This document shows positions 1,942-40,991 of a DNA stretch of 52,615 bases, piece by piece. The stretch lies in sequence record NC_079181.1; one strand, 5' to 3'. Under the pieces are notes generated by a model. It was not told the DNA's origin and did no database searches. It saw only the letters and a program-made list of their open reading frames with translations. This DNA comes from Escherichia phage vB_EcoP_Bp7. Made by a program: the position numbers and the translations under genes. Position 1 is the stretch's first letter. Every line of letters starts with the position of its first letter.

Positions 1942-1990
1942 TCAGTAACACTAATTGGGTCAAGGATGACCACAAACTTGGAGACTTATA

Positions 1991-2191
1991 ATGAATACCA
2001 TGCAAATCAATCAAATCGAAAACTGTTTCAATCCTCATCACACCTGTGACATGAGCAACTTATCTCGTCCTACAGTGGAGGAGACTAAAGACTTCTTAGA
2101 ATTGTTAGCAGAATATAAGCAAGAATCGCATGTATTATTGCACGCATATTTGCACAATTCTGGATACTTTGATACAGAGATACCGTTCTGA
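1991..2191 (+). CDS. hypothetical protein (66 aa)
   Basis: ORF with GGAG 7 nt upstream; its initiation region cttggagacttataATG nearly repeats the one at the RNAP junction. Confidence 0.5.
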   Translation: MNTMQINQIENCFNPHHTCDMSNLSRPTVEETKDFLELLAEYKQESHVLLHAYLHNSGYFDTEIPF

Positions 2192-2196
2192 TACTT

Positions 2197-2222
2197 GGGA
2201 GCTTCGGCTCCCTTTTCTTATT
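2197..2222 (+). terminator. intrinsic terminator after the RNAP operon
   Basis: GGGAGC-TTCG-GCTCCC hairpin followed by TTTTCTTATTT. Confidence 0.8.
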
Positions 2223-2266
2223 TCAATTAATTTAAGAGCTGTCTTCAATATCGTCACACAACTCTT

Positions 2267-2285
2267 ACATTAGTTGGATGTGAAG
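2267..2285 (+). promoter_or_regulatory. phage promoter-like motif P1 (acattagttggatgtgaag)
   Basis: Member of a conserved motif family seen at 10 sites; no sigma70 -10/-35 pattern. Confidence 0.55.
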
Positions 2286-2299
2286 TAAAAGAATACGGA

Positions 2300-3135
2300 G
2301 AAATATTCCGCATGTCATGTTGAATCATTCTAGAAACATTCAGCATGTCAGCTTTGAGTTACAGTGTTGTAATGATGTGGCAATCATTGAACTCCCTAGG
2401 TAGGCCACCTACAGTTCCAGCAACCATGACTTAGAGTAGGAATATCTATCCGAAACTTGTACTTCACCTATAGCATGTTCAATTGCGACAATATTGCTCC
2501 ATCTCCTATTATAAAGGCCCACCCACAAGCCGGGAGATAACTTTGGTAATATTGGAACTTTTGGACATGCTTCTTTCTTTCTACAAGAATTCGAAAGAAG
2601 AGAAGAAGTCGGACAAAGCATCTCGTTTGCACGCAGAAGCCGCCCCGATTTTGAGCAACAAATATTGTGACAATTGCGTCGCAGTATGGCATGTAAATAT
2701 TGCTACAAATTGGCATGTTGGAATGTGGCAGAATTGTTAGAGGACTAATCACCTCGAAGATACAATCGTCTACCAATCTGGCATGTTAATTTTGTAACAG
2801 TATTTGTGCCAATTTCGCATGTAGTATTTAACCCAATATTCTTGCAACCCGCATGAATACTGGCTTCCAGCCAAGCGAAGGCTTTATCATCGCATGTAAT
2901 ATTGTGACAATATTGGGATAAAACCCTTTATTTAAATCATTTAGTTTATTAATTAAATGGTCGGTTTTCTGTACATAGGTATTCAGCTGTTTGTGCCAAA
3001 TACAAACAAGTTGGCTGCTTCTACAGAACTCCAGTGCTATAAATGTTCGTGCCAATCTGCTGCAATTTATCTCATTTGGCGGGGTAATATTGTATTAGAT
3101 TGGCATGTCATTCTTTCGATTAGTTGCATGTGAAT
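2300..3135. repeat. non-coding array of degenerate repeats (core GCATGT about 12 times, palindrome CAATATTG about 5 times) with an AT-rich stretch
   Basis: Read directly, e.g. tggcatgtaaat, tggcatgttgg, tggcatgttaat, tcgcatgtagta, tcgcatgtaat, tggcatgtcatt, ttgcatgtgaat; AT-rich 2925-2990; no credible ORF. Confidence 0.6.
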
Positions 3136-28573: not shown

Positions 28574-28788
28574 ATATGGCGGTTATCACTCGTTTAGATG
28601 CCCGCTCACGCAAGAACAACTCCTTCCAGATTCAAGATTTGGAAGGAAACATTTTATGTGTGATTGAGGCAGTTTCTACCACAGAGAGCGACTGTGTTAA
28701 GTTAAAGCACGAGTCAAATCTGCGACTCCACACCTCCGACAACATTCAAATTGTTAAGGGTAATGGAACTATTCTAAGGAAGAAATAA
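28564..28788 (+). CDS. hypothetical protein (74 aa)
   Basis: ORF from the track, overlapping the terminase end. Confidence 0.35.
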   Translation: MDVNMAVITRLDARSRKNNSFQIQDLEGNILCVIEAVSTTESDCVKLKHESNLRLHTSDNIQIVKGNGTILRKK

Positions 28789-30104
28789 TGACTTCCAAGA
28801 AGAAAAATAATCTCTCTGTTAAAGTTGCAGATGGGTTAGAAAACCTTGTAACGGGGTTGGGCGGTCAGGCAGATAAGTCCACTTTTAACCAGTGGACTTT
28901 CTCAAACAAGAACGCGAACTATCGCGAACTTATGAACCGCTTCCGTGAGGATTGGGTGGCACAGAAAGTGTGTACCGTTATTCCTCAAGATATGACGCGT
29001 AAGTGGCGGCATATTGATACCGAAGAGGGACGCAAAGCGGATAAGAAACTTCGTATTCGTAAGCTGTTCCGTGAGGCGTATCAATGGGCCAGATTGTATG
29101 GGACTTCATTTGTTCTGCTCGACCTAAAAGGTACGGGCAAACTTGATACACCATTGCGACTGGATAACTTGAAGACTGGGTGTATTAAATCCATGAGAGT
29201 TATTGACCGCTCACGCTTATTCGCCGCAGGGACTATGGTTCTGGACCCTTTGAGTCCTCACTATGGTTTGCCAGAGTACTACACTTTGGCTGGGTATCCC
29301 GGCTATATCCATTACACTCGTTTCCTTCGGTTCGAGGGTACTGAACTGCCACTGTTCGAATTCCAACGTAACATGTGGTATTCCGATTCGGTACTTATTC
29401 CGCTGTTGAAAACGATTGACCAATTCTACACAACTGCCGCTGCTGCTGCCAGCCTTGCTCAAGAAGCCACAATTGATGTGGTAACTGTCGAAGGCTTACA
29501 ATCTTTGCTCACATCACCGGAAGGTGAGGCTGCTGTGATGAAGCGCTTCAAACTCATGAAGCTGGCAAAGAGTATTTATAACGTCTTAATTCTCGACAAT
29601 ACTGAGAAGTATGACACCAAGTCAATTGCACTGTCTGGTGTGAAAGATTTGATTTGGGAATACTTGAAGATAGTTGCTGCCGCAGTTGGTATTCCGGCTA
29701 CACGTTTCCTTTCTGCATCTCCAGACGGTATGAATGCTACGGGCGAATCTGACCTCGTAAACTATATCGACTTGTTGACTGGCTTGCAGACTTCTGTGTT
29801 TGACCCTCGTTTAGATGTGGTAGACAAGATTGTCCAGGCGCACTTTGGCATTGAAGAATATAACTACGAATGGTTAGACATCTTCCCTGAATCCAATGTT
29901 GAGAAAGCGAAGCGAGCTAAAGATTTGGCATTTGCTGTTGACCTGCTGGTTAACAACGGCACCATTACCACGGAAGTTGCAAACGAAGTCATGTTCCATT
30001 CGGGCGTGTTCGGAACTTGTGACCTTGGTAAGCCAAATCCTAATCCTCCTAACATCCAAAAGGGTAACGCAAGTGAAGCAAAACCAAAACCTGGTTCAGC
30101 TTAA
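28788..30104 (+). CDS. putative portal protein (438 aa)
   Basis: Position between terminase and head genes; AAGGA SD. No motif verified. Confidence 0.5.
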   Translation: MTSKKKNNLSVKVADGLENLVTGLGGQADKSTFNQWTFSNKNANYRELMNRFREDWVAQKVCTVIPQDMTRKWRHIDTEEGRKADKKLRIRKLFREAYQWARLYGTSFVLLDLKGTGKLDTPLRLDNLKTGCIKSMRVIDRSRLFAAGTMVLDPLSPHYGLPEYYTLAGYPGYIHYTRFLRFEGTELPLFEFQRNMWYSDSVLIPLLKTIDQFYTTAAAAASLAQEATIDVVTVEGLQSLLTSPEGEAAVMKRFKLMKLAKSIYNVLILDNTEKYDTKSIALSGVKDLIWEYLKIVAAAVGIPATRFLSASPDGMNATGESDLVNYIDLLTGLQTSVFDPRLDVVDKIVQAHFGIEEYNYEWLDIFPESNVEKAKRAKDLAFAVDLLVNNGTITTEVANEVMFHSGVFGTCDLGKPNPNPPNIQKGNASEAKPKPGSA

Positions 30105-31137
30105 CGACGAAGATACCGTGAATGAAGTAGTTTTGTTGAACGACAAGGCTACTTTGACGACCCGTCGTTTACGTGACTCTGGCGAAATGATTGCAGAATG
30201 CACCATCGCCCGTACTGGCATCATGCTGTACAAGGCGAAAGAACTTGGTGAAATTGCAAAACATCTGGACCCAGAATCTATTTGCCGTGTTCGTACCAAG
30301 CCGGAAGTATTATTTGACGAAGCAACCATCGAAGGCTGTCGTTCAATCCCGGTTACTATCGGCCATCCGAAAAATGATGTTAACATCAAGAACAACAAAG
30401 AACTCCAGAAAGGGTTCATCGAAGGGCGTCCAGTTGCAGACGGTTCTTTCTTAGCTGCATCAATCGTTTTGAATGACGAGCAAGCTATTCGATTAGTTGA
30501 TTCTGGTGTTGACCAAATCTCCTTGGGCCATAGTGCTGAACTGGCTGTATCAGAAGATGATGAAGCCGACTTCGATAAAGTTCGCATTATCCCTAACCAT
30601 GCTGCAATTGTTGTTCGTGGTCGTGCTCAGACTACTCGCATTGGTGACTCTGGTGAAGAGATTGCCATTGTTGATAAGGCAACCTTTGACGTTGTTGAAG
30701 CAGAGCGTGATGCAGCGCTTGACAAGATTAGTGTCCTTGAACAGAAACTTGCTGATGCAGAAACTGCACGACTATCCGATGAAGCTATTCAGGCTGAGGT
30801 AGACAAACGTGTAGTTGCTCGTACGGCATTGCTTGTTGATGTGGCCCGTCTTGGCGACGAGTTCTCCAACCTAGATTTCTCCGGCAAGACCGATGCAGAA
30901 ATTAAGTTGGCTGTAGTTAATAAATTGCATGACAAGGATTTCAGCGATAAGAGCGAAGACTATATCTCCGCCCGTTTCGATGCAGCTCTTGAAGATTGCG
31001 ATTCCATTACTTTGGGAGATGCCCTGAATCAGTCTATGCAATTCTCTGCTAAGAAAGATTCAGAAGCTCGTAAACCTAAAGTTTCTATTTCCGAAGAAGC
31101 TAACAAACGTCGTTTAGAACGCTTCAACTCTTTATAA
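30073..31137 (+). CDS. head morphogenesis protein (putative prohead protease/scaffold)
   Basis: Position upstream of capsid genes; acidic coiled-coil C-terminal half; probable GTG start at 30073 in frame with the 29896 track ORF. Confidence 0.45.
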   Translation: MKQNQNLVQLNDEDTVNEVVLLNDKATLTTRRLRDSGEMIAECTIARTGIMLYKAKELGEIAKHLDPESICRVRTKPEVLFDEATIEGCRSIPVTIGHPKNDVNIKNNKELQKGFIEGRPVADGSFLAASIVLNDEQAIRLVDSGVDQISLGHSAELAVSEDDEADFDKVRIIPNHAAIVVRGRAQTTRIGDSGEEIAIVDKATFDVVEAERDAALDKISVLEQKLADAETARLSDEAIQAEVDKRVVARTALLVDVARLGDEFSNLDFSGKTDAEIKLAVVNKLHDKDFSDKSEDYISARFDAALEDCDSITLGDALNQSMQFSAKKDSEARKPKVSISEEANKRRLERFNSL

Positions 31138-31146
31138 GGTAAGACA

Positions 31147-31620
31147 ATGCCAAAGCAAGATTGGTCTATTAATACTGGTGAAGCATATGCAGGTGAACAA
31201 TACGGCCTGGCTACCACCAACTCCCAGCGCCTGACTTACGTTGCCGAAGAAGAAATGGCAAACTTTGGTCTGGCTGTTGTTCAAGGCACGGCCTCTAATC
31301 AGGTTAAACCTGGTATTGAATCTGATGGCACTGTTCTGGGCATTACCATGCGCCAGATTAACATCGAATCTGCTACTCGTCCTGGTGACGGTACTGTTGC
31401 TATTAAAGTTGGCTGGCCTCTGGGCGTTATGCTGTCTGGCCCAATCATGGTCAAACTGAAAACCGCAATCACCGACAAGAACATCGGCGTATCCACTAAA
31501 GGTGAATTTGGTGGCGTTGGTGCTGGCTATACTAAGGCAACCAACCTGACTGCCCTGCGTTATCCGGCTTCCGCTGGTGATGTTGTCCCGGTCATGATTA
31601 ACGTAGTCCCAAAGCCGTAA
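31147..31620 (+). CDS. capsid-associated protein (decoration/cement-like), short form
   Basis: E. coli-like high-expression codons; lies just before the major capsid gene; ends 6 nt after the slippery heptamer. Confidence 0.6.
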   Translation: MPKQDWSINTGEAYAGEQYGLATTNSQRLTYVAEEEMANFGLAVVQGTASNQVKPGIESDGTVLGITMRQINIESATRPGDGTVAIKVGWPLGVMLSGPIMVKLKTAITDKNIGVSTKGEFGGVGAGYTKATNLTALRYPASAGDVVPVMINVVPKP

Positions 31621-31913
31621 CGCCACCTCCAGCTCCTACAGTATCTGCTGTAGCAGGAGTTGTAACTGCTGACGCATCTGTATCTGATGCCACTGTGACT
31701 GTGGACAAACTGTTTAAGTTTGAGAACTCCACAGCAACAGACTATCACTTCGCTGTTACACCTCCGGTGACTGGTGTTTCCGTGGCGGCAAACGGCACTG
31801 TGACTGTCCTGAATGAGACAACCACAGGTACTTCTGCGACAATCAAGGCAACAAATAAAACAGCATCTGGCGTAACTGCAACCAAAGAAATTACCATTAC
31901 GCCGAAGGCTTAA
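31602..31913 (+). CDS. -1 frame extension carrying a Pro-rich linker and Ig-like domain (frameshift product)
   Basis: Open -1 frame from 31602; slippery X_XXY_YYZ heptamer C_CCA_AAG at 31608-31614; extension encodes TPPPAPT linker plus a beta-rich Thr/Val domain; hairpin 31922-31942 follows its stop. Confidence 0.55.
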   Translation, partial: RSPKAVTPPPAPTVSAVAGVVTADASVSDATVTVDKLFKFENSTATDYHFAVTPPVTGVSVAANGTVTVLNETTTGTSATIKATNKTASGVTATKEITITPKA

Positions 31914-31935
31914 GTTGCACTGGCGCAATTAATAG

Positions 31936-32976
31936 TTGCGCCTAACCAAACAATATGGATTAAATTACATGCCTAAGATGATTAAACTGGCGGACGGTTC
32001 TGAATTCGAACTGAACGACGCTATCACCCGTATTCAGGATTCTGGCACTGTTGTCCTGAATGACGACGATGCAGTATTCTTTCAACGCCAGCTTGAGTAC
32101 ATTGAAGCTCAAACTTACGACACTCTGTATCCAGAACTGGAAGCTCGTGCTGCTTTCGGTGTGGACACTACTGGTGGTGCTGGCGTAAACACTCTGACCT
32201 ACCGTTCTTACAACCATGTTGGTAAAGCTCAGGTAATTAATGCCCGCGCAACCGACCTGCCGAAGTCCAGCATTTCTGGCAAAGAATACAGTATCCCTGT
32301 TAAATCTGTTGGTACTGCATTCGACTACGATATTGATGAAGTGGCATCCGCTGCTGTTACTGGCCTCCCGCTGGAAACTCGTAAAGCAAATGCTGCTATT
32401 CGTGGTTACGAACAGTATGTTAACTCTGCTGCATGGTACGGCGATAAAGCTAACGGCTTTGTTGGCTTCTTCGAAAACCCAGACATTACCAAAGCAACTG
32501 TTGCTGCTGGTGCTGGTGGTTCTACCAAGTGGGCTGAGAAGACCCCGACCGAAGTTATTGCTGACCTGACCACTGCTGTGTCTGCAATGTATGCTTCTAC
32601 TCTGAAAATCATGCGCCCAGACGAAATCTGGATGCCTGTTGAGCATGAGCAGTACATCTTCAACACTGCACGTTCTGAACAGTCTGACAAGACGATTGGT
32701 CAGTTCTTCATTGACAACAACCAGTTCATCAACTCCCGCGATAAAATCAAGGGTCTGAACGCAATCAAAGGTCACGGCGACGCTGGTTCTGATTGCTTCG
32801 TTGTTGTTTGCCGCAATGCAATGGGCAACCGTACTTTCCGTCTGCGTGAACCTCTGCCGCTGACCTGGCAACCGGTACAGCTTCATGGCCTGGTTTATGA
32901 AGTTCCTGGTCGTGGTCGTTTCGCTGGCTTCCAAGCGATGTATCCGGCAGCAATCTCCATCAACTCCGGCATCTGA
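31936..32976 (+). CDS. putative major capsid protein
   Basis: ~340 aa, E. coli-like high-expression codons, followed by a strong hairpin; start uncertain (31936 lies inside a hairpin; ATG 31969 or 31978 more likely). Confidence 0.6.
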   Translation: MRLTKQYGLNYMPKMIKLADGSEFELNDAITRIQDSGTVVLNDDDAVFFQRQLEYIEAQTYDTLYPELEARAAFGVDTTGGAGVNTLTYRSYNHVGKAQVINARATDLPKSSISGKEYSIPVKSVGTAFDYDIDEVASAAVTGLPLETRKANAAIRGYEQYVNSAAWYGDKANGFVGFFENPDITKATVAAGAGGSTKWAEKTPTEVIADLTTAVSAMYASTLKIMRPDEIWMPVEHEQYIFNTARSEQSDKTIGQFFIDNNQFINSRDKIKGLNAIKGHGDAGSDCFVVVCRNAMGNRTFRLREPLPLTWQPVQLHGLVYEVPGRGRFAGFQAMYPAAISINSGI

Positions 32977-34721: not shown

Positions 34722-36170
34722 ATGGCAATTCCAATTTCCGACATCATCCAGGTCAACATCGCGGTAAGTCCTAACGCTGTTGCCGTGGAAGGTTTTGGTC
34801 CTCTTCTGTTTCTGAGTAAAGAGTTTACTCCAACTCCGGGCGAAGCTGTTCCTGTTCGCCAGTATACTAGCATGGCTGCTGTATCTGCTGATTTCCCATC
34901 TGGTGAAATCTATCAAGCTGCATTAGCATGGTTCTCTCAGAAGCCAACTCCAAAGTATTTCCTCGTGGGTGCTATTACTCATGAAGATGTTACTCTGGCA
35001 ACTCCTGGTACTGTAACCGCATCTTCTGCTGCGACCCTGGAAACCATTAATGCAGTAACTAATGGTGTTCTGTCCATCAATATTAATGGCGTTGATAAGT
35101 CCACTGCACCTATCAACTTCTCGTCTGCAAAAGACTTTGCTGCTGCTGCATCAATGATTAATGCCGCATTTGTTGCTGCTGACATTCCTGCAACTGCTTC
35201 GCAGACCACAGGCACTTTCAAAATCACTACTAACGACACTGGTTCCACTGCTATCATTGGTAACGTGTATGGTTCTGCTGCTGAGGCATTTGAGTTAGAT
35301 TCTGCTTCAAGCCCTGTACATGTTCAAGGTACTGATGAAGTGTCTATCGGCACCGACCTGAATGCAATCTTGAACTCTGCGTTCGACTTCTTCTTTGTTG
35401 CTATTGACCGCAAATATCGTGGCAGTGCTGAGGGTAATAACCAGATGACTGTTGCTAAGTGGGCAGAAGCAAACGGCAAAGTGTTTGGTTGGGCCGATAG
35501 CGACCCGCAGATTCTGGTTCCTGGTGCTGAGTCTAGCTTTAAGCGTGCCAAAGAGCAGAACCTCCAACGTACTTTGTTGGTGTATGATGCGTCTGATAAT
35601 GGCGACGAATATCCAGAAGTTTCTATCCTGGGTCGTGCATCTACTGTTAACTTCAACGTTGCAAACTCCTCGCTCGTTCTGGCGTTTAAGCAAGGTCCAG
35701 CTATTAAGACTGCTGACTTGTCCCCGAACCAGCTTGCTGCACTTGAGCGTGTGAATGGTAACGCATTCATCAACGTTGGTGGGAACACCATGTTCTACAA
35801 CGGCAAGATGGCTGACGGTACTTGGTTCGATACCGTGCAGGGTGTTTCTTGGTTAACCTCCAAGATTCGTGCTAACGTGTTCAACCTGTTCTACACTTCC
35901 ACTACCAAGATTCCTTGGACAGACACTGGTGTTGCACTGGTGAACCAGCAAGTAACCCTGGCTCTGGAACTGGCAGTGACCAATGGTCTGATTGCCCCAG
36001 GTTACGACAATGAAGGCAACTTCTACCCTGATGGTTACAAAGTCTTGTCTACTGACTTGGCTCTTATGCAATCTCAGAAAGGTGCTCGTATCTGGGAAGG
36101 CACTTCCTTCATTGCAATTGGCTCTGGCGCATTGCAGGGTGCAGTTATCTCCGGCAACTTCGTTCAGTAA
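34722..36170 (+). CDS. putative tail sheath protein (482 aa)
   Basis: Size and position before a ~150-aa tube-like gene, chaperone-like gene and tape measure; high-expression codons. Confidence 0.5.
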   Translation: MAIPISDIIQVNIAVSPNAVAVEGFGPLLFLSKEFTPTPGEAVPVRQYTSMAAVSADFPSGEIYQAALAWFSQKPTPKYFLVGAITHEDVTLATPGTVTASSAATLETINAVTNGVLSININGVDKSTAPINFSSAKDFAAAASMINAAFVAADIPATASQTTGTFKITTNDTGSTAIIGNVYGSAAEAFELDSASSPVHVQGTDEVSIGTDLNAILNSAFDFFFVAIDRKYRGSAEGNNQMTVAKWAEANGKVFGWADSDPQILVPGAESSFKRAKEQNLQRTLLVYDASDNGDEYPEVSILGRASTVNFNVANSSLVLAFKQGPAIKTADLSPNQLAALERVNGNAFINVGGNTMFYNGKMADGTWFDTVQGVSWLTSKIRANVFNLFYTSTTKIPWTDTGVALVNQQVTLALELAVTNGLIAPGYDNEGNFYPDGYKVLSTDLALMQSQKGARIWEGTSFIAIGSGALQGAVISGNFVQ

Positions 36171-36180
36171 GGTGCGATAA

Positions 36181-36636
36181 GTGAAACAATATTCTTTCTA
36201 TAATACCGACCTCATTATCGACGGTGCTCGTGTAGATGGTTTTACTTCTGGTAACTCTATCATCACTGCTCGTCGTAACGCACCTCAACACCTGCCTGTT
36301 ATTGACGCGTATGGTAAGTTGGCTGTAGCTACTACGGCTGACTTGTCTGGTACTATTACTTTCCCGCTTCTGCAAACCGCAGACTGGAACGAAATCCTGT
36401 ACAGCCGTGCTCAGTTAACTCAGGCAACTGGTCTATCTGGCAACAAATCTCTGTGGCAACCGCTCCAGATTCAGATTGTTGACAAGATGGGTGATGTGCT
36501 GGTCAACGGTGTAAACGGCGCTATCTTGCAGCAACCTGCAATTCAGCGTGGTGTGTCCTTCACGTCTAACGTGTGGTCTATCTTTGTAGAACGCCTCCAG
36601 ATTAAGACTGGCTCTTATCCGGAGATTGGCGTTTAA
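36181..36636 (+). CDS. putative tail tube protein (151 aa)
   Basis: Size and position after the sheath-like gene. Confidence 0.5.
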   Translation: MKQYSFYNTDLIIDGARVDGFTSGNSIITARRNAPQHLPVIDAYGKLAVATTADLSGTITFPLLQTADWNEILYSRAQLTQATGLSGNKSLWQPLQIQIVDKMGDVLVNGVNGAILQQPAIQRGVSFTSNVWSIFVERLQIKTGSYPEIGV

Positions 36637-36647
36637 TTGGAGTAAGT

Positions 36648-37106
36648 ATGGCTTGTGAATTGCTTCAACGTGAATTCACAAACTCCAAAGGTGAAACAGT
36701 GTTAGTCGTTGTTCGACAATTGTCGGCTTCGGCTGCACTGTCTCTTCACGCGGAGTTGGTAAGCAAGCTAGGCTCACGAGTATTCCCATTCATCGAAGGC
36801 AAATATAACTTCGCTGATATTATATACTTGATGCAGCAAGTGGAGCATACCGTATTCACAGAATTGTTTAAGCGTGTTATCAGCATGCACTCGTCCATAG
36901 ATGGACAAGAAATCAAACCTGCATTATATGATATGCAGTTTAATGGCGAATTGATGTTGTCTTGCCATGTCTTTGCTTTCGTGCTCGAAGCAAACTTCCT
37001 TGATTTTTTCAAGCAAGGGCTCGAAATCAACGAACAGAGACGATTGGAGGCGGAGGAAGCATCCAAGCTGGCAGAGCAGAAGAATTCGAGTCCGGAGACA
37101 GTTTAG
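36648..37106 (+). CDS. putative tail assembly chaperone (152 aa)
   Basis: Position between tube and tape measure; acidic C-terminus. Confidence 0.4.
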   Translation: MACELLQREFTNSKGETVLVVVRQLSASAALSLHAELVSKLGSRVFPFIEGKYNFADIIYLMQQVEHTVFTELFKRVISMHSSIDGQEIKPALYDMQFNGELMLSCHVFAFVLEANFLDFFKQGLEINEQRRLEAEEASKLAEQKNSSPETV

Positions 37107-37265: not shown

Positions 37266-40200
37266 ATGAAGACAATGGCTAATCAAAAAGATTTAATGAA
37301 GTTGAGCGTTAATGAGTTAATTGCATTAGGCTCTCAAAGCGGTCTGACTTTCCACGCTGGTATGAAGAAGTCGCACATGGTTCAACAACTTAGTGCGAGC
37401 GCTGCTTCGGGATGGCTGGATACAAATGCAGAATTAATGGGTGGGTCGTTTGAAGACGACAGTTTAATTACTGAATCTCTGGGCGACTCTTCCATGATTT
37501 CAGACGCTGCCCACATTGCACAAGTGCTTTCAAGTGCAGGCTACACAGAAGCATTTCATGCAGCAATGAATGGCCCATCACACCATGTAGAAGCTGTTCA
37601 CGCATACATGGAAAGGCTTGGTGTCAACACAGACGATGTGTGGATGCACATGCCAAAGCCAAATCCGAACTTACCGCAAGGTAGTTTCAATATGCTTAAT
37701 GCCTATATGCGAGATACTTTGCAAGGGCATCAAGACATTATGCCGGAAATCCCAGGCCATTATGCTGGCGATATTATGGCAGAATACTCCACCAACCGTG
37801 GAAACATTGCTGACTCTTATAACTACATGGCCCACATGTATGTTGACCGAGAGCAATACAGCAATCATGAACAATACGCAAGAGACATTAGTCGAGTTGC
37901 CAAACGTCTGGAACGAGAGTTACCCTCAGCCTTTAAGGAAGTTGGGTATACATCTGCATCTAATGTAGGAAATAAATCGGCCCCACATATTTCTTACATG
38001 GACGCACTCCCTCAGATTGGCTCTCCTTCAATTGTTTCTGGCATTGCACATCCTCGTGCGCCCCTTAACGCATCTGGACTTCCTCTCGGTTCTTATGGTT
38101 CTGGCATAAATCCAGAATACTCCCTCACTGCATCACTAACTGGTGGCACAGGTTGGAGCGAACCAAGCAAGGCTTTGTATTCTTCTATTAGTGAAGCTGT
38201 TAAATCTGCTGCCAAAGTTTATTCTGGCTCCAAAGGGATGCTGAATACCCGTCACGAAGTATCTGACCGTGACATGATTATGGATAGTGCAACACGCTAC
38301 ACAGATTTGGAAGAAGCCAGGAGCGGGTACGAAAACCTTCGTTCTGAACTTGCAGATGAGCCAGCTTATTCTGCATCAAGTGTTCGAGCTATTCTCGAAA
38401 ACACTTATGATAAAATGGATGCCGAACCTGTTCGCATTCCAAAGATGAAGGGAGCTTCACAGCGAGTCGATAAAGATTCACTGTCAACATCTACAGATTT
38501 TACAGCACAACTTGGGGAGGCCACCAATTGGAACTCTGCAAGAATGCGTCGTGAGGAACTTGCGATTGCAAATATGGATAGTGCTGGATTCCGTGATGTA
38601 TCAGACTATGGTACAGGACGTTCCGAGTCCCCCGTCCGATTCCATGACTTAGAACAGGGCAGCCAAGAGTGGCTGGACTTCCGTAAAAATTATGACATAA
38701 CTGGTTCAACTGTTGGAACCTTCTTAGGAAACAACCCATATACCCGACCTTGGGCTGGGATGATTGATAAGATTGGCTTATCTCGTAGTAAAGAGCACAG
38801 CGATTTCACCAAGAAGATGTTCGCTGATGGTCACAGGACGGAAGAAGAAGCACGCGCTCGTGTTGGTAAGGAATTTGGATTCGATATCAAACAAACTGGC
38901 GCTATAACAAATGACAACTATCCCGCCTTCATGTATTCTCCTGATGGTCTTATTGGGGATGATGCCATTTGGGAGCACAAGAATCCGCAAAGGGCTGGTA
39001 AGTTTGCTGACCTTCTTAAAGGCGACCATCCAGATTACATGGACCAAATTCAATTTGGCTTGCACGTTTCTGGTCGTTCTCGTGCTCTGTTCTCACAAAC
39101 CATCAACGACGAAACACGTTCACAATGGATTGAGAAGGACGAAGGATGGTACGAAAGAAACCGAAATCGCCTTGATTCTGTGCTTGGCCGTCTTGATGCT
39201 GGGCGAGAGTTTGTTAGAAACAATGCTGGGCTAGGGCGAGAAGAGCTGATTGCTGGTGCAAGAAGTGCAATGACTGGTGATGGAATCTGGAAGGATATTC
39301 GTCAAAAGTCCACTCGTGGCTATTCTGCTGCTGCTGGTACTCCAGAAGACCCGTTTATTGGCTCACGCTCTTCGTACAACCCAGAAGCATCCTACTCTGA
39401 CTACAAGCCAAACTTTGTAATGCACGAGCAAAACTTTCCAGCAACCACAGGAAACGGTGATACTGGAAATGACTCGATGGCATTGTCTGTTAAGAAAGGT
39501 ATTCTTGCTGCCCAGGAAGAAAACAGGCAGAAGGGTATTAGTGCAGATGCAGACTTTGATGGCAAAGCCGACTCAATGGGCTGGAACCGTGAAAGATTTG
39601 ATGCTGCCAATGGCGGTGGATATTCTGGCGGTGGCGGTGGTCGTGGCGGCAACTTCACAAGTGGTGGCAACTACTATGATGACTACGGTCGCATGGGTGG
39701 TTCGTTAGCTGCTGGCATTGCTGGTGGCAGTATTGGTTCAGCAACCAACGGAGTTATGCAAGCATTGATGGCGACTCCTGCTGGGCGTATGGCTGCTGTA
39801 GGCATTGGTGCTATTCAGATTGGCAATGAAGCTGCTGAATACATGAATGACTTTATCGGCAACTCGCTTGATGCTGGTGTGATAAATCCTAATGAATATT
39901 CTTCCATGTCGCAAGGCTTGGAGATGTTAGGACTCAACTCACAACAAGCGGCACGTCTGAATCAAACCACACATAGTGCCTACAACACCATGCTTAACGG
40001 CGACCCCAGCGCCGCTGTGAACATCGTTCGCGGAAGTAGGGGATTGCTCACCATAGGTGATATTCGTGCGACAGGCGGCGACCCTGTGGCCCTAGCTCGC
40101 ATCATGCAGGAAAGGGGCAAGGAGCGTGGCTGGAGTCAGGCCCGTATCGCAGGTGCTGCCGAAATGGCTGGCCTGAATGGGATGGCCCGTGCCTACGACC

Positions 40201-40991
40201 GCACGGAATACAGCCATGAGCAAGCTGGTTCGGTGGTAGAAGCGGGTAGAAACTCTGACTTTGCCGAAGGCATGGCTCAGTCAGAAATGTTGCAGGGAAG
40301 CCGCGTACGGATGCTGCCGAGCTACAACGTGCCACAAAGTGTCTTATCTAACGGTGCTTCTGTATTCGAAGCTGGTAGCGATGCACTTGACGGTGTACGA
40401 ACTGGATTCAACAAAACACGAGAATTTGCTGGAAGTGTTTACGACTTTATCGCTCAAGAAGAATCTGGCGGTAGTGAATATAACAGGGATGGTTCTCGTG
40501 TAACAAGTCGTACTGGTGCTCGTGGAATAATGCAAATTCTTCCTTCAACTGCCCGTGACCCAGGATTTGGAATCAAGCCGTCTGATGGAACTCCAGAAGA
40601 TGATGCACGAGTTGGTCGTGAATACTATGACGCAATGTACAAGCGTTATGGCGACCACGAAAAGGCAATGGCTGCTTACACCGATGGTCCTGGCACTGTT
40701 GACAAAGCTATTGACAAGAATGGGCTGGATTGGCTAACTGCTGTTCCTGCACAAGCACAGAATCGCGTTAAAGCATTCCGTGAATGGTCCAAGTCTTCTC
40801 AGTCTTTGGAAGAAGGTGCTACAGGGTTTACCCGTAATGGAATGTCATACGGACAAACCCAAACTGTTGTTAATGTTAAGATTGATGCTAAGGTCAACAA
40901 CCAGACTGCTTCTGCTACAGTTGCAATTCCTGGTGGCCAGACTGTGACTCAACAAATGAACATGAACAACGGTGCGCAACAAAGAAGGTAA
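37266..40991 (+). CDS. tape-measure-like protein with embedded YqaJ-like PD-(D/E)XK nuclease domain and C-terminal lytic transglycosylase domain (1241 aa)
   Basis: Rho_N/SAP-like N-terminus; YqaJ-like EQGSQEWLDFRKNYDITGS with SPDG...IWEHK (D-x10-ExK) around 38630-39090; Gly-rich hydrophobic segment; SLT-like QEESGG...TGARGIMQILPSTA around 40450-40750. Confidence 0.7.
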   Translation: MKTMANQKDLMKLSVNELIALGSQSGLTFHAGMKKSHMVQQLSASAASGWLDTNAELMGGSFEDDSLITESLGDSSMISDAAHIAQVLSSAGYTEAFHAAMNGPSHHVEAVHAYMERLGVNTDDVWMHMPKPNPNLPQGSFNMLNAYMRDTLQGHQDIMPEIPGHYAGDIMAEYSTNRGNIADSYNYMAHMYVDREQYSNHEQYARDISRVAKRLERELPSAFKEVGYTSASNVGNKSAPHISYMDALPQIGSPSIVSGIAHPRAPLNASGLPLGSYGSGINPEYSLTASLTGGTGWSEPSKALYSSISEAVKSAAKVYSGSKGMLNTRHEVSDRDMIMDSATRYTDLEEARSGYENLRSELADEPAYSASSVRAILENTYDKMDAEPVRIPKMKGASQRVDKDSLSTSTDFTAQLGEATNWNSARMRREELAIANMDSAGFRDVSDYGTGRSESPVRFHDLEQGSQEWLDFRKNYDITGSTVGTFLGNNPYTRPWAGMIDKIGLSRSKEHSDFTKKMFADGHRTEEEARARVGKEFGFDIKQTGAITNDNYPAFMYSPDGLIGDDAIWEHKNPQRAGKFADLLKGDHPDYMDQIQFGLHVSGRSRALFSQTINDETRSQWIEKDEGWYERNRNRLDSVLGRLDAGREFVRNNAGLGREELIAGARSAMTGDGIWKDIRQKSTRGYSAAAGTPEDPFIGSRSSYNPEASYSDYKPNFVMHEQNFPATTGNGDTGNDSMALSVKKGILAAQEENRQKGISADADFDGKADSMGWNRERFDAANGGGYSGGGGGRGGNFTSGGNYYDDYGRMGGSLAAGIAGGSIGSATNGVMQALMATPAGRMAAVGIGAIQIGNEAAEYMNDFIGNSLDAGVINPNEYSSMSQGLEMLGLNSQQAARLNQTTHSAYNTMLNGDPSAAVNIVRGSRGLLTIGDIRATGGDPVALARIMQERGKERGWSQARIAGAAEMAGLNGMARAYDRTEYSHEQAGSVVEAGRNSDFAEGMAQSEMLQGSRVRMLPSYNVPQSVLSNGASVFEAGSDALDGVRTGFNKTREFAGSVYDFIAQEESGGSEYNRDGSRVTSRTGARGIMQILPSTARDPGFGIKPSDGTPEDDARVGREYYDAMYKRYGDHEKAMAAYTDGPGTVDKAIDKNGLDWLTAVPAQAQNRVKAFREWSKSSQSLEEGATGFTRNGMSYGQTQTVVNVKIDAKVNNQTASATVAIPGGQTVTQQMNMNNGAQQRR

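Follow-up and report, generated by a model that had tools for sequence, protein, structure and literature searches.

In a 52,615-nucleotide (nt) stretch of Escherichia phage vB_EcoP_Bp7 DNA (record NC_079181.1; 'the window' denotes this whole stretch), the gene for a capsid cement protein ends with the sequence AAC GTA GTC CCA AAG CCG TAA. The heptamer C_CCA_AAG, situated in the 0-frame register and 10 nt from the stop codon, leads into a −1 frame that encodes a proline-rich linker and an immunoglobulin-like (Ig-like) domain (Table 1). We think it highly probable that a programmed −1 frameshift at the cement gene's end appends this domain to the cement protein, as an original prediction made from the letters of the sequence had proposed. 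This conclusion is drawn from the in-register signal, its conservation and its loss together with the extension, the coding signature of the −1 frame, the lack of a start codon of its own and the folds of both halves of the predicted product. The cement-gene frameshift is apparently undescribed in this phage family, the Chaseviridae; frameshifted Ig-like domains themselves are well known in phages.

Table 1. Features around the cement gene of the window, with the tandem extensions of four related phages in the coordinates of their own loci
Feature	Coordinates	Strand	Remarks
Portal gene	28788..30104		
DUF2213 head protease/scaffold gene	about 30073..31137	+	
Capsid cement/decoration protein gene, 0 frame	31147..31620	+	157 amino acids (aa), 16.4 kDa
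TAA closing the −1 frame upstream	31599..31601	+	read from sequence
Slippery heptamer C_CCA_AAG	31608..31614	+	X_XXY_YYZ register of the 0 frame; codons GTC CCA AAG
Predicted −1 extension	31614..31913	+	99 codons and stop; first post-slip codon GCC at 31614
Pro-rich interdomain linker AVTPPPAPT	31614..31640	+	
0-frame stop codon TAA	31618..31620	+	one sense codon (CCG) between heptamer and stop
Stretch handled as intergenic in GenBank, evolving as −1 coding	31621..31694	+	
Hairpin 15 nt 3′ of the heptamer	31630..31662 (core 31633-31659)	+	−15.5 kcal/mol
Ig-like beta-sandwich domain (modelled)	31638..31901	+	extension residues 9-96
72-aa open reading frame, separate 'hypothetical protein' gene in vB_EcoM_Bp10	31695..31913	+	GTG start
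Hairpin between extension stop and major capsid ATG	31922..31942	+	−13.2 kcal/mol, z=−3.84
Major capsid protein gene	31969..32976 (ATG 31969)	+	Pfam Major_capside
Two-domain extension, flopper	2009-2596		
Two-domain extension, DE15	1962-2549		
Two-domain extension, SA91KD	1962-2549		
Two-domain extension, JL1	2009-2596		

Slippery site and the two halves of the predicted fusion

The change of frame is confined to positions 31602-31619, because the −1 frame is closed by the upstream TAA and the 0 frame reaches its own TAA at 31618; C_CCA_AAG is the sole slippery motif inside this interval. The −1 frame is open from 31602 to 31913 (its terminating TAA occupies 31911-31913) and reads RSPK/AVTPPPAPTVSAVAG...ITITPKA. 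In these respects (gene end, heptamer close to the stop, open −1 frame with a Pro-rich linker) the original prediction was correct. The fusion that it expected at ~25 kDa is computed here as a protein of 255 aa and 26.1 kDa, with the predicted junction ...NVVPK-AVTPPPAPT... (...NVVPK-AVTPPPAPTVSAV...) and the predicted junction peptide DVVPVMINVVPKAVTPPPAPTVSAVAGVVTA. A predicted tryptic peptide, AVTPPPAPTVSAVAGVVTADASVSDATVTVDK, would come from 31614-31709; the 27 residues at its N-terminus are encoded 5′ of every candidate start codon of the extension.

In-frame X_XXY_YYZ heptamers occur 36 times in plus-strand open reading frames (ORFs) of at least 100 aa. Only two of the 36, the site at 31608 and a tail-chaperone site at 37004, are located near a stop codon and continue into a long −1 ORF without its own start. 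At the cement site this continuation has 97 codons and is part of no gene having a start of its own. The motif C_CC.A_AA.G was the top −1 heptamer measured in E. coli, with 54% frameshifting in the presence of the IS3 pseudoknot; the figures obtained in reporter assays were ~0.3% without a stimulator and up to ~3.7% with a favourable 3′ context (PMC4066793). A 2016 review in Nucleic Acids Research places C_CCA_AAG among the highly shift-prone motifs (PMC5009743).

Two further routes into the Ig-like frame were considered and excluded. Readthrough of the stop codon would end at a TAG in the 0 frame, 10 codons beyond the TAA, and a +1 shift would enter a frame with only 17 open codons.

The product of the upstream gene, described as a head protein in the original prediction, is a beta-tulip capsid cement/decoration protein; this identity follows from a hidden Markov model (HMM) match, a fold match and the position of the gene between the DUF2213 and major capsid genes. 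The 157-aa protein matches Pfam PF22758 Phage_cement (E=2.4e-17; 63.8 bits at a curated cut-off of 27 bits; residues 4-152 covered) and PHROG 563 'virion structural protein'. The 'Cement' chain of phage Pam3, 8hdt_G, was matched both by a profile of cement homologues (E=0.0035) and by the AlphaFold model of the cement half (predicted local distance difference test, pLDDT, 83), with E=1.5e-6 and a template modelling (TM) score of 0.73. In the fold search the model also resembled decoration proteins of T1, FCWL1, HFTV1 and XM1 as well as the base of the phi29 head fibre gp8.5; according to the structure match, this base has the cement/decoration fold and the C-terminal part of gp8.5 forms the head fibre. 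The cement half and the extension were each modelled separately rather than as the whole fusion.

The PHROG match and the predicted structure identify the extension as a confidently modelled Ig-like domain. It matches PHROG 13745 'Ig domain containing protein' (E=2.3e-7), and its AlphaFold2 model (pLDDT 93.8) is a nine-strand beta-sandwich. Foldseek aligned this model with the Ig-like domain of T5 pb6 (E=2e-4, TM 0.63), the Ig domain of the phi29 capsid protein gp8, invasin and a Rib domain. Among viral models it resembled 'Bacterial Ig-like domain' and BIG2 proteins as well as C-terminal domains of major head and tail proteins.

Conservation and coding signature in the Chaseviridae

A megablast search with positions 31100-32000 matched 44 phage records, of which Escherichia phage vB_EcoM_Bp10 was the closest (99.8% identity), followed by TH53, EcoM1, ST32, phiEcoM-GJ1 and others. 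The window and these best matches belong to myoviruses of genus Carltongylesvirus, subfamily Cleopatravirinae, family Chaseviridae. The comparative set, analysed by script, comprised four metagenomic contigs and 31 phage loci, among which ST32 and flopper are each represented twice.

All 25 extension-bearing phages (from Carltongylesvirus, Faunusvirus, Suwonvirus, Sabourvirus and Loessnervirus, along with Aeromonas phage phiA050) have the −1 frame open for 94-191 codons beyond the 0-frame stop; 24 of them have the exact heptamer CCCAAAG. Identity among the cement proteins of these phages goes down to ~60%. The first C of the heptamer comes from a codon that is GTC, GGC, CTC, ATC or GCC (Val, Gly, Leu, Ile or Ala) and that always ends in C; GTC and CTC each make up only ~10% of their own codon families in this genome. 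The heptamer is absent from all nine relatives without an extension, i.e. Spp001, pAh6-C, pAh6.2TG, VPs20 and ZPAH14 (Nefertitivirinae/Shantouvirus) and the four metagenomic contigs (positions 1501-2082 in one of these). In these nine the distance from the cement gene to the capsid gene is only 15-90 nt; it is ~330 nt in the extension-bearing phages and ~610 nt in those with two Ig-like domains. One of the extension-less contigs encodes a cement protein 83% identical to that of the window, and the gene ends ...TTT TCC AAA GGT.... In several of these contigs the cement protein carries a short in-frame Ala/Pro-rich tail, such as ...TAAPASASEQPTAAPAK, which may be a remnant of the linker.

The stretch between the 0-frame stop and the first annotated GTG evolves as a coding sequence. 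Variable sites at 31621-31694 are distributed as 8/6/21 over the three −1 codon positions (binomial p=0.001), synonymous changes make up 0.64 of the codon differences in the −1 frame versus 0.14 and 0.02 in the other two, and among 16 distinct sequences there are no stop codons in the −1 frame versus 33 and 21 in the others. By this substitution pattern the stretch is under protein-coding selection in the −1 frame. Over the whole extension the corresponding distribution of variable sites is 39/38/88.

The sequences behind the site belong to at least five unrelated types. The first (TADAS...TVTVDKLF) is shared by the window, Faunus, 4HA13, phiA050 and Y2; others are those of PP101/Aioli, of SNUABM27/Papaline (type 3), of Orgeat and of Myduc. 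All types have in common a Pro-rich linker that is encoded in the −1 frame behind the shift site. The types other than that of the window are likely to be Ig-like as well; their Pfam matches were all sub-threshold, to Ig_3, Ig_2, ig and GldM_3rd, and type 3 had no Pfam match. In flopper, DE15, SA91KD and JL1 the extension reaches 195 codons and contains two tandem copies of the Ig-like domain with a second linker, KPKPPAPT, between them. This layout indicates a recent in-register duplication of 282 nt behind the frameshift site.

These data bear on the idea that the extension is an untranslated or decaying remnant, left by a frameshift mutation or a sequencing error, with CCCAAAG retained only for the C-terminal Pro-Lys of the cement protein. 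The fact that no in-frame fusion is known in the family would fit a remnant, but the identical arrangement of frames recurs in 25 independently sequenced phages of several genera, the extension shows purifying selection with no −1 stops, and domains have been swapped and duplicated with the −1 register retained. Moreover, the heptamer is fixed at its synonymous positions, and the codon before it ends in C whatever its amino acid. We regard a remnant as very improbable.

Conservation of the exact X_XXY_YYZ register is relevant as well to a change of frame at the RNA level, in which slippage of the T7-like RNA polymerase would delete a base. Chaseviruses encode such a polymerase (as stated in a passage of PMC6872899), and trans-frame proteins are known to arise alternatively by slippage (PMC5009743). 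The site, however, offers no homopolymer longer than three C or three A, and this mechanism needs long ones, of the A7/U7 type according to the review; the conserved register matters for re-pairing of tRNAs and not for a polymerase. Slippage during transcription is thus extremely improbable here, and a −1 shift of the ribosome is the reading that we retain.

One match at the locus had an unexpected host label. PP952070.1, 'Staphylococcus phage Pel53' (stated host Staphylococcus hyicus), is 88% identical in DNA to the coliphage locus and 90% identical in the cement protein; such a match would not be expected of a phage that infects Gram-positive bacteria, and it points to a wrong host label or to contamination.

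Start codons, hairpins and points against the frameshift

In current annotation the Ig-like ORF, where recorded, is an independent small gene. Many GenBank/RefSeq records name it 'Ig domain containing protein' (a 70-aa version in ST32) or 'hypothetical protein' (vB_EcoM_Bp10), and versions of 72-90 aa are present in protein databases, all of them N-terminally truncated at arbitrary points. A free protein of ~70-90 aa would then be made from an internal GTG or TTG start, which is 31695 in the window. The annotated starts are inconsistent, with at least six distances from the heptamer (+33, +36, +54, +84, +87, +93, +159 and +171 nt), and six of the records examined (PP101, phiA050, SNUABM27, Aioli, Orgeat and SKA49) have nothing annotated there. 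ATG codons are missing from the −1 extension, and neither of the GTGs at 31695 and 31701 is preceded by a Shine-Dalgarno sequence, the duplex free energy being +0.6 kcal/mol as compared with −2.9 to −8.3 kcal/mol for ten neighbouring genes. Initiation at 31695 would yield a product without three strands of the fold (modelled strands 1-3, extension residues 9-28). The sequence 5′ of every candidate start is under −1 purifying selection and free of stops, and an independent gene would leave unexplained both the invariance of CCCAAAG and its loss together with the extension. We therefore consider an independent gene improbable and its annotation at 31695..31913 most likely a mis-annotation. None of the ~25 annotated records examined carries a frameshift annotation, the place being taken by a truncated ORF or an empty 300-nt gap; the error is likely to extend across the subfamily.

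Several observations weigh against a programmed frameshift with an Ig-like product. Proteus phage Myduc has no canonical heptamer. Its cement gene ends ...CAG GCA AAG TAA, so that the site reads G_GCA_AAG and the A_AAG tetramer alone is slippery; the −1 ORF nevertheless has 110 codons (locus 1935-2306) with KPVPPDPPP as linker, and it matches Ig_3/ig weakly. Of the tetramer motifs in E. coli, A_AA.G performs best, with up to 5.6% frameshifting in the presence of a pseudoknot (PMC4066793), and a tetramer-only shift of lower efficiency may be plausible in Myduc, with less certainty, or the mechanism may differ. The Pfam Big_2/Ig search that had been suggested for the window's extension was negative: no Pfam Ig family matched, and the only match was SEF14_adhesin at E=0.21. 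The Ig-like part of the original prediction is thus supported by the PHROG match and the predicted fold, and not by Pfam. A search of 87 close homologues and 74 distant representatives gave no in-frame cement-Ig fusion, and hence there is no 'Rosetta stone' support; a few longer cement homologues have internal insertions, not C-terminal Ig domains. For this family, evidence of a trans-frame protein or virion proteomics was not found in the searchable literature.

A further group of such observations concerns stimulators. No strong conserved stimulator was found at the site, and without one the long form could be very rare (~0.3%, up to ~3.7%, by the rates cited above). Stimulatory structures usually lie 5-9 nt downstream of the heptamer. 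The hairpin at 31630-31662 begins 15-18 nt past it, its z score (−2.28 in a 51-nt window, where 3 of 200 shuffled sequences folded as well) falls to −0.78 in a 93-nt window, and Y2 and Orgeat have no equivalent.

The original prediction had pointed to this hairpin (31633-31659) downstream of the heptamer. The structure exists; a stimulatory role, given its distance and lack of conservation, is unproven. The frameshift may occur with the hairpin acting mainly as a terminator or attenuator or as an element of mRNA stability, while the efficiency is set by the heptamer and the stop codon alone. Such a division of roles is suggested by the spacing, by the missing equivalents in Y2 and Orgeat, by the rho-independent terminator annotated in SA91KD and by the position of the 0-frame stop, 0-1 codon after the heptamer, which alone among the features of the context is shared by every lineage (with no codon in between in the Y2/Papaline/Orgeat/SNUABM27 lineage). 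On the other side, termination here would cut off the extension and the downstream major capsid gene, and the hairpin has no T-run; it is therefore not a canonical intrinsic terminator, and the annotation in SA91KD is unsupported. A single compensatory change, in which two synonymous sites turn an A-U into a C-G pair, and the hairpins of some kind that several lineages fold nearby (z of −2 to −4; −3.96 in Papaline) hint at a selected structure. A role other than stimulation is a serious possibility, toward which we do not quite lean. We view the hairpin as a possible lineage-specific modulator outside the core signal, its stimulatory role being unproven.

Other elements were considered. A Shine-Dalgarno-like GGTGAT is located ~25 nt 5′ of the heptamer within GCTGGTGATGT (31577-31587), conserved in all relatives; it was rejected as a dnaX-type upstream stimulator since it is too far upstream and is accounted for by the conserved AGDV residues. 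Rfam gave no match in 31400-32000, and no phage-encoded tRNA, which could modulate decoding of Lys codons, was found in the genome. The second hairpin of the original prediction, at 31922-31942, was recovered; its arms are GGCGCAACU/AGUUGCGCC, it lacks a T-run, and its equivalent is labelled a terminator in the SA91KD record. It might be a terminator or pause site for the T7-like polymerase, or an RNA-processing or stability element before the highly expressed capsid gene.

The order of genes in this region is terminase, portal, DUF2213 protease/scaffold, cement gene, a gap of ~350 nt and the major capsid gene. Relatives differ in the annotated start of the DUF2213 gene, giving products of 340, 354, 393 and 413 aa (29896..31137 versus 30073..31137 in the window), and the longest version overlaps the portal gene by ~200 nt.

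Proposed expression, known systems and significance

At C_CCA_AAG the ribosome would have tRNA-Pro paired to CCA (P site) and tRNA-Lys paired to AAG (A site). The majority of ribosomes would read CCG and terminate at the TAA to give the 157-aa cement protein; a minority would slip back by one base, re-pair on CCC and AAA, read GCC at 31614 and stay in the −1 frame to 31913. The long product would consist of the cement domain, the AVTPPPAPT linker and the Ig-like domain. Both forms retain the capsid-binding beta-tulip body, and the long form should co-assemble at a fraction of the cement positions, and the Ig-like domain should stand out from the surface of the head, where it would presumably function as an adhesin with weak binding of carbohydrate or mucus-like ligands. 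The occurrence and efficiency of the slip, incorporation into the virion and the adhesin role are what we infer from the data above; an outward C-terminus of the long form would be expected by analogy with the phi29 gp8.5 base, from which the C-terminal part extends as head fibre. The head diameter is 53-65 nm (PMC12842549), a size suggestive of a T=7 capsid, in which there would be roughly 400 places for cement protein. At 0.3-4% frameshifting a head would then carry ~1-17 Ig-bearing copies, or more if the hairpin stimulates.

No prior description of a Chaseviridae frameshift was found in the searchable literature, which did not cover the original phiEcoM-GJ1 and Y2 papers. Addition of Ig-like domains to phage structural proteins by frameshifting, the precedent invoked in the original prediction, is a recognized route, and coat-protein frameshifts are known in T3 gene 10 (10A/10B), Lactobacillus phage A2 and Listeria phages A118/A500 (PMC5009743). 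In T3 and A2, as predicted here, the extension is Ig-like and the long form joins the capsid beside the major form (PMC5009743). In all these phages the frameshifted gene encodes the major capsid protein, whereas in the window it encodes a separate beta-tulip cement protein. Small Ig-like beta-sandwiches, modular and exchangeable, are also displayed at the virion surface as C-terminal parts of structural proteins, as in T4 Hoc, the C-terminal domain of T5 pb6 and phi29 gp8 (Fraser et al. 2006, as cited in PMC5009743), the latter two being among the top Foldseek matches of the window's extension; those domains are encoded in frame, and that of the window in the −1 frame.

By HMM and fold, E217 gp24, Pa193 gp25 and Pam3 gp6 belong to the same cement family as the 157-aa protein, which is shorter than E217 gp24 (residues 1-211 modelled, according to the passage on its structure). 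In the passages describing them, the E217 and Pa193 cement proteins form trimers on the capsid exterior at the three-fold and quasi-three-fold axes (PMC10329688; PMC11456595). These passages mention no frameshift or Ig extension and, as far as they go, the Chaseviridae protein is the only one of the compared cement proteins with a trans-frame extension.

With respect to the signal, copA has the identical heptamer, C_CCA_AAG. The dnaX, IS3/IS911 and copA sites are of the same class, X_XXA_AAG, with weak pairing of tRNA-Lys with AAG (PMC5009743; PMC4066793). They have defined stimulators (an upstream Shine-Dalgarno-like sequence and/or a structure 5-9 nt 3′), in contrast to the window, where no such conserved element was found. 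Tail-chaperone genes G/GT likewise have a conserved −1 frameshift in a structural module with a fixed ratio of short to long form; there the long form is an assembly chaperone, unlike a surface-exposed cement-Ig form.

The window probably contains such a G/GT arrangement as a second −1 frameshift. In the ORF 36648..37106 (152 aa), which follows sheath-like (34722..36170) and tube-like (36181..36636) genes, T_TTT_TTC is situated in frame at 37004-37010; the −1 frame, open from precisely 37004 onward, extends to 37282 and overlaps slightly with a 1241-aa tape-measure-like ORF (37266..40991).

The true product of the Ig-like ORF would be a 26-kDa capsid surface protein, and the correction alters the predicted composition of the virion. 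The site also offers a natural sub-stoichiometric display position on a myovirus capsid, comparable to the 10B frameshift of the T7 family, which has been exploited for display of this kind (PMC13370021). The family itself constitutes a natural series (one heptamer, varied stop spacing, presence or absence of a hairpin, one tetramer-only variant) for the study of −1 efficiency in Enterobacterales.

Recoding as such will not surprise a specialist; the informative pattern is the swapping, duplication and loss of modules behind a fixed frameshift site. Tentatively, and somewhat short of conviction, we suggest that C_CCA_AAG is both a fixed 'socket' for exchangeable surface modules and a selected dosage device. 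Lineages of the Cleopatravirinae would have swapped at least five unrelated beta-rich modules (Ig-like where testable), duplicated them in tandem or deleted them, each insertion having arrived in the −1 register or been selected for it. As a dosage device the site would restrict a bulky adhesin to a small share of the cement positions, tuned in each lineage by the position of the stop codon and by local hairpins, and closure of the cement lattice would thereby remain possible. Ig-like domains on capsids are thought to give weak adherence to mucus or cell-surface glycans. The phages concerned are being characterised as biocontrol agents against E. coli, Yersinia, Erwinia amylovora and Pectobacterium, and the type of module that each carries (one, two, a different one or none) may affect its persistence in the gut or on plants.

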